The notes below the pieces were generated by a model, which worked only from the letters and a program-made list of their open reading frames with translations, was not told where the DNA came from and ran no database searches. This document shows, in pieces, positions 2,285-42,842 of a stretch of DNA of 64,000 bases (positions are counted from its first letter, which is position 1; each line of letters starts with the position of its first letter). Source of the DNA: Candidatus Magasanikiibacteriota bacterium (GTDB lineage: Bacteria; Patescibacteriota; Patescibacteriia; Magasanikbacterales; UBA922). Position numbers and translations under genes: made by a program. The stretch lies in contig DMXO01000002.1 in NCBI GenBank assembly GCA_003482855.1, positions 112,114 through 176,113 on the forward strand. The letters are read 5' to 3'.

Positions 2285-3061
2285 TCAAAAACTCAAAAAA
2301 CTCAGATACCAGCTAAGTATTCGTTCACCCCACACCATTACTACAAACGTCGCGCTCGTCAAAAAAACCCCGAATGGCACCTGACTTTTCATTGTTTTCT
2401 TTTTTGAAACAAGTAAACCAACACTTATAATTGCCCCAACCACATATGCAATCCACAATGCCAAAAGCAACAATTTCCAACCCAAAATAACACCCATAAG
2501 TATACCAATCCTGATATCTCCTCCCCCCACCCAACGTCCTTTTGATAATATATATTGCAGAAGAAAAAAAAGACCACCCAAACAGGCACCGATAAGTAAG
2601 GGGAACCATTCACCCCCCCAAACAACATATCCCCCGATAAAAAATAAAATAACTGCTGACCCAAGTGTGATACTATCTACCACCTCCATATATATGAGAT
2701 CATATACAAAAATAAACGAAAGTACCCACATAACAAACCAATGCAATACTACTATAGGAAAGACCATCCCTACTACACTCCACTCAAACCATACAACAAA
2801 CACAAATACTATTCCCATCCATAACTCTACCAACGGATACTGCCATGATATTTTTTCTTTGCACATTCGACAACGGCTACGTAATAATAAAAAACTAAAC
2901 AATGGTATATTGTCATACCATGCAATCTGCTTTAAACAATGAGGACACTTAGACCGTTCTGTGATCTTATTGTGTGTATGGAGACGCCAAACAATAGCAT
3001 TCAAAAAACTGCCAAAAGACACTCCGAGTAATGCTACAATAAAATACAAAAATAACATCAT
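2285..3061 (-). CDS. pilD: prepilin peptidase (type IV leader peptidase/N-methyltransferase, A24 family)
   Basis: N-terminal CPHC...CRMC zinc-binding tetracysteine, multi-pass membrane protein, adjacent to pilin gene. Confidence 0.85.
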   Translation of the reverse strand: MMLFLYFIVALLGVSFGSFLNAIVWRLHTHNKITERSKCPHCLKQIAWYDNIPLFSFLLLRSRCRMCKEKISWQYPLVELWMGIVFVFVVWFEWSVVGMVFPIVVLHWFVMWVLSFIFVYDLIYMEVVDSITLGSAVILFFIGGYVVWGGEWFPLLIGACLGGLFFLLQYILSKGRWVGGGDIRIGILMGVILGWKLLLLALWIAYVVGAIISVGLLVSKKKTMKSQVPFGVFLTSATFVVMVWGERILSWYLSFLSF

Positions 3062-3080
3062 ATAGGCTTATTATAGCAAA

Positions 3081-3118
3081 AAAACAAAATAAAAAAAAGC
3101 CCCTTTTACGAGGCTTTT
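3081..3118 (-). terminator. putative rho-independent terminator downstream of pilin gene
   Basis: hairpin aaagcc..ggcttt followed by U-run on minus strand, between pilin stop (3136) and pilD start (3061). Confidence 0.4.
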
Positions 3119-3135
3119 TATTCATCAACCTAGAA

Positions 3136-3573
3136 CTATTGTGTAAGACCTGATGGGGTGGCACTCACTGTACCTGCTACGAAATTACCAGCGCCAACTT
3201 CGAGCACTGCGGTAATGACATAATCAGTACCAGCGCTAGAATTGTATGTGTAATATTCAGCTGAACCAGGACCTGCTGGGACAAGACCCATATATGGACT
3301 TGCACAACCAGAAGCTCCAAAACCACTAGAACCAAGACAAGTATAGTTACCTGTTCCAAGATTTACTTGGGCAGTAGTGGTAGGATATGAATTATTATCT
3401 GTATAGTACAATTCAAGTGCAGTCTGTACTTGTTTGACGTCAGCAAGACGCTTTGAGTCATTTGCTTTCTTACGTGCTGAACCTAGAGCAACTACAGCAA
3501 GTGTAGATAGCAAACCAATAATAGCGATAACAACCAAAAGTTCAATCAATGTAAAACCTTTCTTATTATTCAT
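3136..3573 (-). CDS. type IV pilin (prepilin with class III signal peptide)
   Basis: MNNKKGFTLIELLVVIAIIGLLSTLAVVAL: classic G/FTLIELL prepilin cleavage/N-methylation motif; strong SD GGAAGGGGGTGA 5 nt upstream of ATG at 3573 (ORF track start at 3582 is a GTG three codons upstream). Confidence 0.85.
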   Translation of the reverse strand: MNNKKGFTLIELLVVIAIIGLLSTLAVVALGSARKKANDSKRLADVKQVQTALELYYTDNNSYPTTTAQVNLGTGNYTCLGSSGFGASGCASPYMGLVPAGPGSAEYYTYNSSAGTDYVITAVLEVGAGNFVAGTVSATPSGLTQ

Positions 3574-4078: not shown

Positions 4079-5224
4079 TCAGAAATTTCGAAGTCCCAAA
4101 CCAATACTCACCGCCATACGGGGCCCTATTTCGCCCAATATACTCTTCAAACCATCCTGATATATGACACGAGCCCATGGATCACCCACAAACACTCTCA
4201 AAGGAAACATCTGTTGTATATACTCACTAATTGGAGGAAAAAGCCCTGCACCACCAGTTAGAATAATTTTTTCCGGACGTTTCGCCTCATTGCCACTCTG
4301 GTGCAAGTATAAATCAAGACTATATTGAATTTCTTTTGAGATAGGATCAAGGATACTCAAAAATAGGTCTGTGGTCATGCGTGACTGTAAAGATAGGTCT
4401 CTCTTTATCTGATCAACCTGCCCGATATCTACTCCGAGATGCTGGCTCAAAATTTTATCAAAATTATTACCCCCAATTTGGAGACTCCGGTGAGTCATCG
4501 GGACGCCGGCATCAATAATGAAAAAATTAGTACGTTCTGCACCCACATCGACCACCATAGACACTGTTGTATCTTTACCTACAAGGGAGCGGGCAAGGGC
4601 AAAAGCTTCAGTTTCGAGCTCCTCGAGTTGCAGGCCCGCGCGCTGAAATATGGCTGTATAAAAAGCCACAAGCGCTTTGGGGGCTGCTGTCACAAGAAGT
4701 GTCATATACTTCTTCTCTCGTTCTGGATCTTTGGTAATTTTTTGATGCACTATTTGCATGTCATCTATGGGACTGGTGATCATCTTGGCGACTTCTGCCC
4801 TCACAATCTGGGGTATTTCCTTATCACTTACATGAGGCAAATTGAGAATAGCATGAAATACGTACGATACTGGCAAACTTGAAGTAACACGGTGAGATTG
4901 TACCCGTGCTTTTTGAATCAACAATTTTAAAAGCTCTGCATATTCATTGATACGTGCATCTTTGAGGATAAGTTCTTGGGCAGAAGTTGGTTCTTTCTTG
5001 TCTTGCTTCTTTTTTTCATTTTCATACTGTATATCACGCTCGTGCAAGAGATCTTGTAGATCTTTCTCTGGAGGAGTCTGGACATGTACATCAAGTTCTT
5101 TATCAAGGATACCATATGTCCACAGTTGAGGTCTGCCTTTTGTCTTGTGTAATTCAACAAGCTTGATACCATGTGCACCAATATCTATGCCAAGATAATT
5201 TTCTTTTTTTGAGAATAAACCCAT
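4079..5224 (-). CDS. pilM: type IV pilus assembly ATPase-like protein PilM (actin-like fold)
   Basis: N-terminal GIDIGAHGIKLVEL motif typical of PilM/FtsA-like; 381 aa. Confidence 0.75.
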   Translation of the reverse strand: MGLFSKKENYLGIDIGAHGIKLVELHKTKGRPQLWTYGILDKELDVHVQTPPEKDLQDLLHERDIQYENEKKKQDKKEPTSAQELILKDARINEYAELLKLLIQKARVQSHRVTSSLPVSYVFHAILNLPHVSDKEIPQIVRAEVAKMITSPIDDMQIVHQKITKDPEREKKYMTLLVTAAPKALVAFYTAIFQRAGLQLEELETEAFALARSLVGKDTTVSMVVDVGAERTNFFIIDAGVPMTHRSLQIGGNNFDKILSQHLGVDIGQVDQIKRDLSLQSRMTTDLFLSILDPISKEIQYSLDLYLHQSGNEAKRPEKIILTGGAGLFPPISEYIQQMFPLRVFVGDPWARVIYQDGLKSILGEIGPRMAVSIGLGLRNF

Positions 5225-5290
5225 AAACGAAATTTATAAAATTGACTATAGTATACCATATTTCGAATTTTGACACTATAACAGGTTAAT

Positions 5291-5400
5291 AAATTCACCT
5301 AATTACCTAATTCACCTAATTTCTAACAAAGTTCCTAATATCTAAATTGAATCTTTTAATTTTTATTAGGTGAATTAGAAATTAGAAAATTAGGTGAATT
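5291..5400. repeat. nested inverted repeats / iteron-like cacctaatt motifs between MBL gene 3' end and pilM start
   Basis: aattcacctaatt (5292-5304) pairs with aattaggtgaatt (5388-5400); inner aattcacctaat (5309-5320) pairs with attaggtgaatt (5366-5377); cacctaatt occurs 3x direct, aattaggtg 2x inverted; overlaps the last codons and stop of the MBL gene. Confidence 0.5.
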
Positions 5401-26423: not shown

Positions 26424-26460
26424 TATAAAAATATCCCGATTCAGTCGGGATATTTTTATT
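26424..26460. terminator. bidirectional rho-independent terminator between convergent genes
   Basis: aaaa-atatcccga-ttcag-tcgggatat-ttttatt. Confidence 0.6.
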
Positions 26461-40093: not shown

Positions 40094-40372
40094 ATGAACA
40101 AAGCAGAATTGGCACAGGCCATAGCCGACAAAGCAGGAGTATCCAAAAAGGAAGCAGAAAGTATGGTAGCTTCTTTTGTACAAATTGTTACCACCACTAT
40201 CAAAGGCGGTGGCGAGGTAAATATTGCAGGCTTTGGTGCATTTAGCGCAAAGATGCGTGCAGGACGCGTCGGAGTCAACCCACAAAACCCAACACAAAAA
40301 ATTCAAATCCCCCCTGTCACCGTGCCAAAATTCAAAGCTGGCAAAGCATTGAAAGATGCGTTGAAGAAATAG
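40094..40372 (+). CDS. hup: DNA-binding protein HU
   Basis: MNKAELAQAIADKAGVSKKEAE...GFGAFSAKMRAGRVGVNPQN...: HU/IHF family signature; 92 aa. Confidence 0.9.
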   Translation: MNKAELAQAIADKAGVSKKEAESMVASFVQIVTTTIKGGGEVNIAGFGAFSAKMRAGRVGVNPQNPTQKIQIPPVTVPKFKAGKALKDALKK

Positions 40373-40387
40373 AATAACAATTTACAC

Positions 40388-40418
40388 AAAAACCTCTCAT
40401 AATGAGAGGTTTTTTATT
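40388..40418 (+). terminator. rho-independent terminator after HU gene
   Basis: acctctc-ataat-gagaggt-tttttatttttt. Confidence 0.6.
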
Positions 40419-40432
40419 TTTTCATGAAACTG

Positions 40433-40556
40433 TGTCAGAGGGGAGGATCGAACTCCCGACCTTAGCGTTATGAATGCTACGCTCTAACCGACTGAGTCCC
40501 GAGGCGAGCTCGGGATCCCGATTCAGCCCCAAGGCTGACATCGGGACTACTCTCCA
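40433..40556 (-). pseudogene. tRNA-Met(CAT)-like second copy with ~50-nt twin-hairpin insertion in D-arm and mismatched acceptor stem (pseudogene or insertion-containing tRNA)
   Basis: revcomp: TGGAGAGTAG-[TCCCGATGTCAGCCTTGGGGCTGAATCGGGA TCCCGAGCTCGCCTCGGGA]-CTCAGTCGGTTAGAGCGTAGCATTCATAACGCTAAGGTCGGGAGTTCGATCCTCCCCTCTGACA; D-arm to 3' end nearly identical to tRNA at 40824-40900 with compensatory T-stem changes; 5' acceptor strand pairs only 4/7. Confidence 0.5.
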
Positions 40557-40822
40557 ATATTATTTTTATCTTCAATAATTTTTTCAATAATAATTCTGCT
40601 TTTCTGTCTCTTTAGCCAACGTTCTCTTTGGTAAGCTTCCTCGATTGAGCTAAACTTTTCAATTTTCTTTAATTCCCAAGGTCTTTTTGTGACTGTAGAT
40701 TTTGATTGTCCACGGTTATGTTCTTTTATCCTTCTTTCAATATTATTAGTTACGCCAATATAAAAACTCCCATGTTTTATACTTTGTAAAAAATATACAT
40801 AATATGGGAGTTTTATACTCAT
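40547..40822 (-). CDS. GIY-YIG nuclease family protein (small UPF0213/YhbQ-like)
   Basis: MSIKLPYYVYFLQSIKHGSFYIGVTNNIERRIKEHNRG: GIY-(10)-YIG, Arg, Glu and Asn catalytic residues; ORF starts 2-3 nt after tRNA-Met 3' end and its TAG stop lies in the 5' end of the downstream tRNA-like copy. Confidence 0.8.
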   Translation of the reverse strand: MSIKLPYYVYFLQSIKHGSFYIGVTNNIERRIKEHNRGQSKSTVTKRPWELKKIEKFSSIEEAYQRERWLKRQKSRIIIEKIIEDKNNIGE

Positions 40823-40823
40823 A

Positions 40824-40900
40824 TTGTGACAGAGGAGGGAATCGAACCCTCGACCTTAGCGTTATGAATGCTACGCTCTAACCGACTGAGCTACTCTGTC
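40824..40900 (-). tRNA. tRNA-Met (anticodon CAT; elongator-type or tRNA-Ile2 lysidine-type)
   Basis: GACAGAG TA GCTC AGTCGGTTA GAGC G TAGCA TTCATAA CGCTA AGGTC GAGGG TTCGATT CCCTC CTCTGTC A; cloverleaf by eye; no GGG/CCC initiator signature in anticodon stem. Confidence 0.8.
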
Positions 40901-40929
40901 ATAGTTATAATTTCGAATTTTTTAACCAG

Positions 40930-41001
40930 TACCGCCACGGGGAATTGAACCCCGGTTGCATGGATGAGAACCATGCGTCCTAGCCACTAGACGATGGCGG
41001 C
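40930..41001 (-). tRNA. tRNA-Glu (anticodon CTC)
   Basis: GCCGCCA TC GTC TAGTGGCTAGGAC G CATGG TTCTCAT CCATG ... GGGGT TCAATTC CCCCG TGGCGGT A; resembles bacterial tRNA-Glu (TCGTCTAG D-arm). Confidence 0.75.
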
Positions 41002-41072
41002 GTATATATCTTTTCAAAAAATACAAAGAGAGCGAGCATAGTATACTGTATATAGACTCATCTGTCAACGAA

Positions 41073-42842
41073 TCATCTATCTGGTGGAACCCGATAATAT
41101 TGCATAATATACTTGGCAATCTCTGCAAACGTAGGTGCAGCTGTCGTCGACGCGTATGCACGCTTGGGTTTTTCAAATTTAACTATCATTACAAATTTTG
41201 GATCATCAACAGGACCGAAGCCAATGAACGAATGATTTGTGTCTGCCAGATAACCCCCCGGTCCAGGAATCTGTGCAGTCCCCGTCTTGCCTGCCACATA
41301 GTACCCCGGCACATGCCCTAATCGTGCCGATCCCACGTCTACTACGCGAACAAGCATACCAGACAAAAGTTGTGCTGTTCTCTTTTCAATTACCTGTCTA
41401 ATTATCTTCGGCTTTGTCTCTTCTATCTTACCATTTGGATATATAACATCTTTGATAATATATGGCTTCAAAAGAGTACCACCATTTGCAATAGCAGCAA
41501 ACGCACTTACCATTTGGAGAGGAGTAGCGGTAATGCCCTGCCCAAAAGATGCTGTGGCTGTGTAACAATCTATTTTGTCTTTTTTGTTGCGATAAAGTGA
41601 GTCTATAGTGCCCGATGACTCAGTATTGAGCTCTATGCCTGTCTTTACGCCAAAACCAAATCGTTCCACATAATCTCTAAATCGTTCTTTGCCGAGTGAG
41701 GTAACCACATGCACCATCCCAGTGTTTATTGAATTTTCAAGAACGCCAGTCATAGTTTGGTCACCATACGATTTGAAATCAGCATTTTTGATAGGCTTCG
41801 TACATCCGACATCTACGCTACCACTGTCAAAAAAATAAGAGTCTGGTGTTACTATTTCTTCATTCAAAGCCGCAGCCATACCAATTGGCTTGAATATAGA
41901 ACCAGGTTCGTAAGGAGTAAATATGTTGAGATTATTATATGCGTCTATTGATTCAACCTCATTGTACGTATTTGGATCAAAATCAGGCAAAGAGCACATA
42001 GCTGTTATTGCTCCTGTCTTCGGATCCATAATAACTAAAGAAGCAGTCTGTGCTCCATACTCATCCATCCGTTGTTTCAAAATATCACACGCTTTGAACT
42101 GAAGTGTACGGTCGATAGTTAATGTAAGACTTACGCCATCTTCTGCTGGTTCAAATAAACGACCGGCAAGCGGTATCCATCCGCCTTTCGCACCCATAGC
42201 GCCTTCAAGAAAACCACCCGTGCCTGATAATTCTTTATTCCAATATCCTTCGATACCATAACTCCCGATGTCATTGCCATCTGCGTCTTTTCCCAAAAAA
42301 CCTATAACTTGCGATGCGAGCGATGCCTCAGGATAAAAACGGTGTGGTCTCCTTACAAAATGGATGCCCGGCAATTTAAGTCCGTCAATCATATCTGCAA
42401 TTTCTTGTTCTACTTTTTTTTCAAGAGGCTCATAAGGATCGTCACGCTTACTGAGCTGCATATAGAGACTCAACTTTTTTTCGTCGTCATAATGAAACAA
42501 CTCAGCTAATTTCTCAGCTATGTCTTCTGCCGTCTCATCATCTTGAATTACCCGCGTATCAACATACATCAAAAACAAGTCCCTATTTATTGCAAGAGGA
42601 TATCTCTCCTGCGAATCCTGCGACTCGAGATAGATAGACCCACGTTCAGGGAAAAGCTGCGCATATATATCATGGGATCCTGAAGCAAGCGCGGTGTAAA
42701 ACCCGTGTTGCCATACCATAAGTACAAAAAGACGAAACACAATAAACAAAAATACGACGGTGAACAGTATGCCCACCGCGCGTATTCGAGAATCCTGTGT
42801 GCCAGGACGTTCAAAGCTATTATGAGAGCGTACGTGTCTCAT
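41073..42842 (-). CDS. penicillin-binding protein 2 / class B transpeptidase
   Basis: N-terminal TM anchor; KTGTAQ (KTG motif), transpeptidase domain; 589 aa. Confidence 0.8.
   Translation of the reverse strand: MRHVRSHNSFERPGTQDSRIRAVGILFTVVFLFIVFRLFVLMVWQHGFYTALASGSHDIYAQLFPERGSIYLESQDSQERYPLAINRDLFLMYVDTRVIQDDETAEDIAEKLAELFHYDDEKKLSLYMQLSKRDDPYEPLEKKVEQEIADMIDGLKLPGIHFVRRPHRFYPEASLASQVIGFLGKDADGNDIGSYGIEGYWNKELSGTGGFLEGAMGAKGGWIPLAGRLFEPAEDGVSLTLTIDRTLQFKACDILKQRMDEYGAQTASLVIMDPKTGAITAMCSLPDFDPNTYNEVESIDAYNNLNIFTPYEPGSIFKPIGMAAALNEEIVTPDSYFFDSGSVDVGCTKPIKNADFKSYGDQTMTGVLENSINTGMVHVVTSLGKERFRDYVERFGFGVKTGIELNTESSGTIDSLYRNKKDKIDCYTATASFGQGITATPLQMVSAFAAIANGGTLLKPYIIKDVIYPNGKIEETKPKIIRQVIEKRTAQLLSGMLVRVVDVGSARLGHVPGYYVAGKTGTAQIPGPGGYLADTNHSFIGFGPVDDPKFVMIVKFEKPKRAYASTTAAPTFAEIAKYIMQYYRVPPDR

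Follow-up and report, generated by a model that had tools for sequence, protein, structure and literature searches.

A 64,000-nucleotide stretch of contig DMXO01000002.1 from a Candidatus Magasanikiibacteriota bacterium, hereafter the window, contains a small open reading frame (ORF) for a GIY-YIG nuclease lying between two tandem copies of tRNA-Met(CAT), the second of which carries a pair of hairpins in its D-arm. The ORF, the hairpins and the duplicated tRNA are considered here together as a cassette. Coordinates are those of the window, and the cassette is read on the minus strand, in whose order the features of the locus are given below.

41073-42842, minus strand: PBP2-like gene, the first feature in this order
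41040..41068, minus strand: sigma-70-like promoter TTGACA-17-TATACT upstream of tRNA-Glu, with 11 of 12 consensus matches
40929..41001, minus strand: tRNA-Glu(CTC), 59.8 bits, the first gene of the transcription unit
40827..40900, minus strand: intact tRNA-Met(CAT), copy 1, Rfam tRNA 71.2 bits, called by ARAGORN as tRNA-Met(CAT) at 40826-40900
40547..40822, minus strand: stand-alone GIY-YIG nuclease ORF, 91 amino acids (aa), Pfam GIY-YIG E=7.2e-17 over residues 7-76
40547..40553, minus strand: AGAGTAG, a remnant of tRNA positions 4-10 overlapping the last codons and stop of the ORF, read directly and compared with relatives
40516..40546, minus strand: hairpin 1, TCCCGAT-G-TCAGCC-TTGG-GGCTGA-ATCGGGA, 31 nt, with a 7-bp outer and a 6-bp inner stem
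40497..40515, minus strand: hairpin 2, TCCCGAG-CTCGC-CTCGGGA, 19 nt, with a 7-bp stem
40433..40496, minus strand: tRNA-Met remnant, copy 2, positions 11-73, Rfam 30.9 bits over model positions 9-63 only
40388..40414, strand not assigned: palindromic intrinsic terminator common to the tRNA/ORF unit (minus) and the convergent HU gene
40094-40372, plus strand: HU gene, convergent with the tRNA/ORF unit

Everything that the earlier note had placed at this site, namely a GIY-YIG ORF between tandem tRNA-Met(CAT) copies, is indeed present on the minus strand. The ORF starts very close to the end of the upstream tRNA, as had been noticed, but the distance is 3-4 nt instead of 2-3 nt: its ATG (40822-40820) lies 4 nt (CAAT) past the discriminator A at 40827 and 3 nt past the tRNA end called by ARAGORN. 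The impression that this leaves no room for a ribosome-binding site was correct, as no Shine-Dalgarno sequence fits in front of the ORF; the neighbouring HU gene has AAGGAA upstream. The stop codon TAG (40549-40547) lies within GGAGAGTAG, which equals tRNA positions 4-10 (AGAGTAG) of copy 1, and, just as proposed, it is provided by the 5′ end of the second copy, being tRNA positions 8-10. The twin hairpins, previously described as a 50-nt insertion with two perfect 7-bp stems, occupy exactly 50 nt (40497-40546) between G10 and C11 of copy 2. The direct repeat formed by the two copies is 80 nt long with 85% identity, which is far above chance, and 394 bp separate the repeats. The window contains in total one GIY-YIG ORF and one pseudo-tRNA, and hairpins 1 and 2 do not recur in its 64 kb, even with up to three mismatches (0 expected by chance). 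At 26432-26452, a hairpin TATCCCGATTCAGTCGGGATA between A and T runs has the cassette-type TCCCGA/TCGGGA stem and looks like a bidirectional terminator between convergent genes.

The site at 41040-41068 is the sole strong promoter-like site for the tRNA-Glu, tRNA-Met, ORF and remnant unit. Since the ORF has neither a promoter nor a Shine-Dalgarno sequence of its own, it is presumably transcribed from the tRNA-Glu promoter, and its translation presumably begins at a near-leaderless or AU-rich start freed by tRNA 3′ processing. The universal U8-A9-G10 of tRNA would then serve as the stop codon, and the hairpins with the remnant would make up a structured 3′ end of the ORF transcript before the sole terminator.

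Copies 1 and 2 match at about 91% over positions 11-73. The compensatory T-stem changes pointed out earlier are there (GGGAG/CTCCC in copy 2 versus GAGGG/CCCTC in copy 1, with one base different in the T-loop), and the 3′ acceptor strand reads CTCTGAC in copy 2 versus CTCTGTC in copy 1, where the T-arm and acceptor run GAGGG TTCGATT CCCTC CTCTGTC with a derived A2:T71 pair. Three of the seven acceptor pairs of copy 2 are unable to form, in agreement with the three mismatches counted before, and a usable 5′ acceptor strand is lacking. The tRNA model scan suggested by the earlier note separates the copies (71.2 bits versus a partial match of 30.9 bits, with no intron family), and ARAGORN does not call copy 2 as a tRNA; thus, copy 2 has neither the seven-pair acceptor nor the full above-threshold cloverleaf of a functional tRNA.

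The origin of the two copies can be read from relatives. Species-representative genomes were scanned with a broad tRNA-Met pattern, which gave 119 loci: the GACAGAG acceptor of copy 1 was found in none of the 119 other tRNA-Met genes of the type scanned, and its A2:T71 pair is unique among them. A comparison of the locus in relatives, also suggested earlier, revealed that the ORF is absent from four syntenic loci (L116, with HU 86% identical; L014, 78%; L088, 77%, with PBP2 at 61%; and L099), where tRNA-Met stands without it. The acceptors at these empty sites read GTCAGAG/CTCTGAC or GTCAGGG, and the T-arms are of the GAGAG/GGGAG-TTCGATC type. This is the tRNA-Met type of the window remnant, not of the intact copy 1, and the 3′ part of copy 2 (GGGAG..CTCCC CTCTGAC) matches the L116/L088 type. 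Going beyond what the earlier note had seen, the downstream copy is the displaced old resident, its 5′ strand overwritten by the end of the ORF and the hairpins placed after G10, and the upstream intact copy has a T-arm and acceptor of the element type; the invasion duplicated the tRNA.

The same element occurs in a distant host, L010, whose HU protein is only 57% identical to that of the window (67% at the nucleotide level), whereas the ORFs share 79% of amino acids and 76% of nucleotides. Between the two, hairpin 1 is 90% identical and the intact tRNA (copy 1) 93%, with no difference in the 25 nt of its T-arm plus acceptor. After the hairpins, copy 2 of L010 ends in a different 3′ part (AGTGG..CCACT CGCCGCT), and a further remnant downstream has a CCCAGCT end typical of the L010 host group; these remnants look like successive layers of displaced 3′ ends. 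Because the ORF is better conserved than HU between distant hosts and is absent from close relatives, the distribution of the cassette is best explained by horizontal mobility. The idea that the locus is an integration or duplication scar of a tiny GIY-YIG-encoding selfish element is, therefore, strongly supported by the empty sites, the horizontal sharing and the recurrence of the same architecture at many tRNAs.

Several observations at these loci deserve mention in their own right. L010 has been invaded a second time (640-1330): an old tRNA-Lys (GCGCTCA...TGGGCGC) is split into two 5′ fragments and one 3′ fragment riddled with hairpins; these surround a second GIY-YIG ORF (753-935, with an in-frame TAA) and a new intact tRNA-Lys with the acceptor GCCCCGT. 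In L014 (minus strand, ~2780-3420), which has no ORF, the tRNA-Met 3′ end and ~100 nt of its downstream flank are repeated at a spacing of ~180 nt, and L116 (1700-1870) and L088 (7015-7100) likewise contain repeated 3′ parts of tRNA-Glu without an ORF. All three have hairpin-rich spacers and are possibly relics of decayed cassettes. A large TCCCGAT...ATCGGGA hairpin in L088 (6850-6925) follows GGCTAG upstream of tRNA-Glu at a locus with no GIY-YIG ORF and may be a relic of the hairpin module. In L099 (~5105-5400), also without a GIY-YIG ORF, another ORF starts 4 nt past the tRNA-Met discriminator (ACATT ATG ATG); its motif AILTQNTAWKNV, recognised by eye, is presumably that of an endonuclease III/HhH-GPD-like protein.

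The acceptor pair 2:71 differs between the intact tRNA-Met and the remnant both in the window (A:T vs T:A) and in L230 (1-480; G:C vs an implied C:G), while in L231 the two differ at pair 6:67, not at 2:71. Speculatively, the swapped pair may make the intact copy immune to cleavage and so protect the cassette, or it may leave deletion recombinants mismatched and so stabilise the cassette; immunity, hybrid incompatibility and chance are all possibilities.

Closer relatives of the window protein (55-67% identity) were collected in a second protein search with a three-member profile, and the cassette architecture was seen in all nine members of this clade with readable DNA. They adjoin tRNA-Met, Val, Arg, Thr or a His-like tRNA sequence and share the signature ...TAG|TCCCGAN..N'TCGGGA|TCCCGAN..N'TCGGGA|CTCA.... 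At tRNA-Met, L230 and L231 consist of an intact tRNA, 11-12 nt, the ORF, TAG, the twin hairpin and tRNA positions 11-76; L227 at tRNA-Val has the same arrangement plus an upstream 5′ remnant GGACAATTAG with the same twin hairpin. L233 at tRNA-Thr carries a single hairpin behind position 10 and a twin behind position 25, and in L228 at tRNA-Arg hairpins precede the ORF and recur downstream of the intact tRNA. In almost all cases, the module is flanked by ...TAG and CTCA... and falls between tRNA positions 10 and 11; otherwise it lies at 25/26.

Twenty-five distinct hairpins were gathered from the clade loci, the more distant L191 and the ORF-less relative L088. All of them begin with TCCCGA and end with TCGGGA, and the seventh pair covaries (C:G in 11, T:A in 10, G:C in 3, the lone exception being an artefact of nested regular-expression matching). 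Between the window and L010/L011, about 12% of the positions of the 50-nt module differ as compared with 65% of synonymous sites, and in relatives one pair in the inner stem of hairpin 1 has changed from A:T to G:C, a compensatory substitution. This low divergence and the compensatory change argue that the twin hairpin is a conserved, covarying module under selection as part of the element rather than a random insertion. Sequence-specific recognition is suggested by the invariant bases of the stems, and the variability of the interior suggests that its fold alone is important; the constant position at 10/11 hints at a possible cut location. A consistent target-site duplication around the hairpins was not found in the set, with only two instances (L010 GCTTGCC, L150 TCAAC) and none in the window. 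In L010 (408-449), hairpin 2 holds a nested 16-nt hairpin (CCGACGCAAGGTCGGG) between 7-nt direct repeats GCTTGCC, which occur neither in the window nor in L011, and the L150 hairpin is flanked by a TCAAC repeat; such small hairpins may themselves be insertion events with target-site duplication.

The window ORF product is 100% identical to a protein annotated from a Candidatus Magasanikbacteria metagenome-assembled genome and is a member of the GIY-YIG superfamily (PF01541) with the catalytic motif in place: across 10 homologues, Y10, Y21, G23, R31 and E67 are invariant, and H35, T25 and N26 nearly so. A profile built from the window protein and nine homologues matched in the PDB, best of all, the UPF0213 proteins BH0048 (1zg2, E=5.9e-20) and EF2693 (1ywl, E=8.3e-18), followed by SLX1 nuclease domains (E=5e-7 to 8.5e-5), with I-TevI matching weakly (E=2e-3). 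As a single domain of 91 aa, the protein belongs with the stand-alone UPF0213/YhbQ/COG2827 type, an SLX1-like URI domain. Pfam and NCBIfam searches of the window protein revealed no second domain, in particular no NUMOD, IENR1 or helix-turn-helix C-terminal DNA-binding module, and the match to TIGR01453 fell under the cut-off. PADLOC and PHROG gave only weak matches to generic GIY-YIG homing endonucleases, and a defence-system or phage affiliation of the ORF was dropped as a candidate. The dN/dS ratio (nonsynonymous to synonymous substitution rates) is 0.10-0.14 between the window ORF and the two relatives closest to it (79% and 68% identical in aa), synonymous sites being almost saturated; this indicates that the ORF is a functional gene under purifying selection.

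Taken together, we consider it likely that the cassette is a horizontally mobile selfish unit, composed of a stand-alone GIY-YIG gene and a twin-hairpin module, that invades the D-arm of a resident tRNA-Met between positions 10 and 11. By analogy with phage T4 SegB and the fungal mORFs (see below), the nuclease would break tRNA genes lacking the cassette, and repair from a cassette-bearing donor would copy the ORF, the hairpins and the adjacent tRNA sequence by co-conversion. The outcome would be a hybrid functional tRNA, with the old 3′ part pushed downstream. Conserved tRNA motifs at the cassette borders would allow occasional jumps to other tRNA species, and selection would act against loss of the cassette, as part of the functional tRNA derives from the element and the old copy is crippled. 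Homing-endonuclease-like spread is the best-supported model, its mechanism of movement being drawn from these analogues.

Some points weigh against this model. The protein is a ~90-aa catalytic domain alone, lacking the DNA-binding domain to which classical GIY-YIG homing endonucleases owe their specificity, and both its cleavage activity and its target site are predictions. Strong purifying selection is atypical for a fixed homing endonuclease and could signal a benefit to the host. The central tRNA region (positions 11-48) is identical between both copies within each genome, so a simple homing model needs gene conversion after insertion. The argument for horizontal transfer to or from L010 is based on a single marker protein, HU. 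Exact-HU look-ups revealed no empty site within the population and no within-species polymorphism: all contigs of the window population that span the site carry the insertion, and the others break off inside the repeat. More distant homologues have no tRNA linkage, among them Flavobacterium P0004, which lies between protein-coding genes. Finally, closed-loop contigs found in metagenomic assemblies point to a different DNA intermediate.

These loops are three MEGAHIT contigs (L011 1-551, L012 1-551 and L226 1-548), each closed by an exact 141-nt terminal overlap equal to the assembly k; the samples concerned are ERZ27254754, ERZ27254845 and ERZ27250473. L011 and L012 contain an identical 410-bp unit in two samples and in different rotations; the unit of L226, from a third sample, measures 407 bp and includes a distinct ORF (57% identical) and a His-like tRNA part. 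The order in the unit is ORF, twin hairpin, partial tRNA and ORF again, with nothing else. Loop contigs are assembly objects, and they imply either that the molecule is circular or that a tandem array is so deep that the assembly graph lost its flanks to pruning; in either case, the contigs indicate that the unit multiplies as a block, and loop or tandem forms of it, not foreseen by the earlier note, exist. It is conceivable, though not probable, that this ~0.4-kb unit (the twin hairpin followed by tRNA positions 11-76 and an ORF that finishes with ...TAG) is itself the mobile form, either free and circular or arrayed in tandem at high copy number. Its SLX1-like nuclease would cut at the hairpin base, the cruciform hairpins resembling a Holliday junction, and the resulting ends-in substrate, with ends corresponding to tRNA positions 8-10 and to position 11 and beyond, would recombine into a tRNA gene and duplicate it; this differs from the homing-type model in the DNA transactions alone. 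Such a scheme would account for the loops, for their exact 141-nt k-mer overlap with one unit shared by two samples at different rotations and a distinct unit in a third, for the constant hairpin position and for both remnant orientations. Opening a circle on either side of the hairpins gives both arrangements seen, with the hairpins downstream of the ORF (the window, L230, L231 and L233) or upstream of it (L191, L228), and the invariant TCCCGA/TCGGGA bases suggest protein recognition by a family related to the structure-specific nuclease SLX1. However, loops in de Bruijn graphs also come from tandem arrays after pruning of low-depth flanks, and the circles are known from assembly only, not from reads or physical DNA. 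A 0.4-kb circle would have no replication function, such action is known for no GIY-YIG enzyme, and the 5′ acceptor strand of the intact L010 copy is also non-resident, a feature not expected from one simple crossover within the tRNA body. Doubtful, too, is the broader proposal that the cassettes are autonomous ~400-bp DNA units, each combining a tRNA-like segment with a twin hairpin and the gene for an SLX1-like nuclease of 80-95 aa, maintained as circles or long arrays and entering essentially any tRNA gene at the universal D-arm motif TAG|CTCA after self-cutting of the cruciform or hairpin.

Other explanations require no mobile element of this kind. The ORF could be an ordinary domesticated host UPF0213 gene in a tRNA operon, with copy 2 a decaying tandem duplication and the hairpins unrelated palindromic insertions or terminator-like structures; strong purifying selection, fixation of the insertion in the population and the occurrence of UPF0213 genes in non-mobile contexts in other phyla agree with this. 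It is nevertheless unlikely, given that the sampled close relatives have no ORF, that the ORF of a distant organism is more similar than its HU, that ORF, hairpin and duplicated tRNA are combined in the same way at five or more tRNA species of the clade and at additional ones across the wider family, that the hairpins are conserved with covariation and always sit at 10/11 or 25/26, and that several loci have two ORF copies. Tyrosine-integrase elements regenerate an intact tRNA on one side and leave a partial tRNA repeat, the duplicated 3′ end of the att site, on the other. The cassette resembles them in precisely this respect, direct repeats of tRNA 3′ parts being the classical mark of tRNA-targeting integrative elements, and the duplication might thus be the att scar of a lost larger island with the ORF as leftover cargo. 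This is very improbable: unlike such elements, the cassette is ~0.4 kb long, has no integrase either in the window or at the related loci examined in detail, and has a repeat extending up to nearly the whole tRNA or its 5′ part. The repeats are only 394 bp apart and start at tRNA position 4-11 instead of being confined to the 3′ half, and every instance has the same minimal content. An extant integrase-mediated tRNA island was likewise rejected, as the 91-aa ORF alone, and no recombinase, lies between the repeats, related loci being alike; an endonuclease-bearing group I or group II intron was rejected because no Rfam intron family matches (40300-41100, E up to 10) and copy 1 is uninterrupted. 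That Rfam search returned only tRNA and chance microRNA or small-RNA matches, with no ribozyme family. The earlier note had finally entertained that copy 2 works as a tRNA-Met from which the 50-nt insertion is removed, the adjacent nuclease aiding its processing. The intact D, anticodon and T arms and the compensatory T-stem changes speak for this, but three of seven acceptor pairs cannot form, the Rfam match covers positions 9-63 only, ARAGORN makes no call, and no intron or ribozyme family matches the region. Moreover, GIY-YIG enzymes are DNA nucleases, the region 5′ of the hairpins in the relatives examined is ORF coding sequence without acceptor complementarity, and several of their remnants are truncated or chimeric with foreign 3′ ends. 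As copy 2 is devoid of a 5′ acceptor strand here and in every relative, this idea is scarcely credible.

The closest analogues of the homing-type cassette are phage T4 SegB and the fungal mitochondrial mORF gene hybrids. SegB is encoded by a GIY-YIG gene in a tRNA cluster, recognises the T-psi-C motif of tRNA genes and, through double-strand break repair, drives the inheritance of itself together with neighbouring tRNA sequence (PMC2330249). Like the cassette, it lies between co-oriented tRNA genes and is absent from related genomes; the presence/absence pattern at homologous loci and the horizontal spread typical of Seg-like genes are found here as well. SegB is known to use its tRNA-gene motif and to cut many tRNA genes; it is a phage gene product of 221 aa with a 27-bp site, whereas the window protein is a 91-aa UPF0213/SLX1-like domain encoded in a bacterial chromosome. 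The available part of the SegB report notes neither a duplication of the target tRNA nor a hairpin module (PMC2330249). In the fungal mORFs (Allomyces atp6; Glomus atp6, atp9, cox2 and nad3), a foreign gene end is brought in and the native end displaced (PMC3630166). The cassette shares with them an endonuclease ORF that travels with a replacement end and a displaced downstream remnant nearer to close relatives. Their targets are organellar protein-coding genes and their endonucleases are mostly LAGLIDADG or full-size GIY-YIG enzymes (PMC3630166); the cassette differs in its tRNA target, in its host from the candidate phyla radiation (CPR), in the duplication on either side of the ORF and in borrowing tRNA nucleotides for stop and start.

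In the same bacterial group, GIY-YIG ORFs have been described in rRNA gene insertions that are neither group I nor group II introns (PMC11270868). These, too, are embedded in a structured-RNA gene; they are described as sparse and not obviously homing, and the accessible part of that source revealed no tRNA linkage, target duplication or twin hairpin. Group I introns have been reported in tRNAs of Patescibacteria, with no mention of GIY-YIG (PMC13011429). As a whole, the cassette can be regarded as a free-standing homing-type endonuclease gene with target duplication, in which the host group, the target class, the minimal nuclease, the hairpin module and the possible loop form are new. Bacterial REP (repetitive extragenic palindromic) sequences and BIMEs (bacterial interspersed mosaic elements) are mobile GC-rich hairpin elements. 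In Allomyces mitochondria, mobile GC-rich double-hairpin elements are known (Paquin et al. 2000, cited in PMC3787672). All these resemble the cassette hairpins as short GC-rich hairpin pairs inserting into non-essential DNA, and the nested L010 hairpin with its 7-nt direct repeat resembles such an insertion event. The cassette hairpins differ in belonging to one nuclease clade, in their invariant bases and D-arm site, and in not being dispersed in the window, except for the one terminator with a similar stem. A literature search returned no description of tRNA-duplicating mini GIY-YIG cassettes in CPR or of the TCCCGA twin hairpin, though this does not by itself establish that they are new.

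The genomes of CPR/Patescibacteria are tiny, and most of their tRNAs are presumably single-copy. In such hosts, an element that splits a tRNA gene but provides a functional substitute has a means of persisting and probably drives the turnover of tRNA loci. It also appears that a bare ~90-aa SLX1-related GIY-YIG domain can sustain mobility, and the conserved twin hairpin with its D-arm site offers a testable answer to how targeting is achieved without a DNA-binding domain. In practice, the remnants and hairpins break assemblies, yield pseudo-tRNA calls and can lead to faulty annotation of tRNAs in metagenome-assembled genomes. Should the recurrent 0.4-kb loops turn out to be true circles, they would be remarkable. 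If autonomous, the ~400-bp units would be the smallest protein-coding mobile DNA known and would represent a new, structure-guided targeting of tRNA genes that ‘addicts’ the host via part replacement of an essential single-copy tRNA.

The window cassette belongs to what appears to be an undescribed family of selfish cassettes that target tRNA genes. The 80 best metagenomic loci contain 86 GIY-YIG ORFs, of which ~15 abut or overlap an intact tRNA on the same strand, and 21 have a same-strand T-arm motif within 250 nt versus a background of 2.7%. About three quarters of the metagenomic homologues have no tRNA motif nearby, and this, together with the Flavobacterium homologue, rules out a tRNA linkage of the whole UPF0213 family; the linkage is a trait of a sub-radiation. 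At many loci, the ORF has a degenerate second copy of the same tRNA on its opposite side, and several loci hold two ORF copies. The intact tRNA is upstream and a 3′ remnant downstream in L044 (Ile), L154 (Val), and L155 and L181 (Ser); a 5′ remnant is upstream and the intact tRNA downstream in L108 and L191 (Met), L137 and L153 (Gly), and L150 (Lys). L135 has an intact tRNA-Ala downstream and upstream only hairpins and a short, weak D-loop match.

The borrowing of tRNA nucleotides recurs across the family. The ORF stop comes from U8-A9-G10 in the window, L010, L070, L135, L153, L154 and L191 and from the D-loop TAG in L044, L108 and L150; in L137 and L153, the ATG arises within the T-loop or immediately behind it. 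The tRNA remnants bear GC-rich hairpins, either inserted or in place of the anticodon arm; the density of such hairpins is 5.45 per kb in the flanks of tRNA-linked ORFs versus 1.42 per kb elsewhere, and CCGAY..RTCGG-type stems recur in unrelated loci. A constant insertion coordinate for the wider family was considered and rejected, since remnant boundaries span positions 8 to 59; a fixed hairpin site, at 10/11 or 25/26, is seen in the window clade alone.

Two further conserved sequences were noticed in the family. In L181 (1920-1960) and L108 (6835-6800, minus strand), a leader TCCTACGCTRAAGCTTCGGATGGCA is conserved between the tRNA 3′ end (CCA) and the ORF; the loci are unrelated, one hosting it at tRNA-Ser and the other at initiator tRNA-Met, and it may be a clade-specific 5′ element. 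In L044 (760-780) and L154 (1125-1147), the anticodon arm of the remnant is replaced by a near-identical palindrome TCCGACGT(A/G)ACGTCGGA, found in two tRNAs (Ile and Val) of different organisms. This suggests that another clade of the family has a conserved hairpin of a second type.

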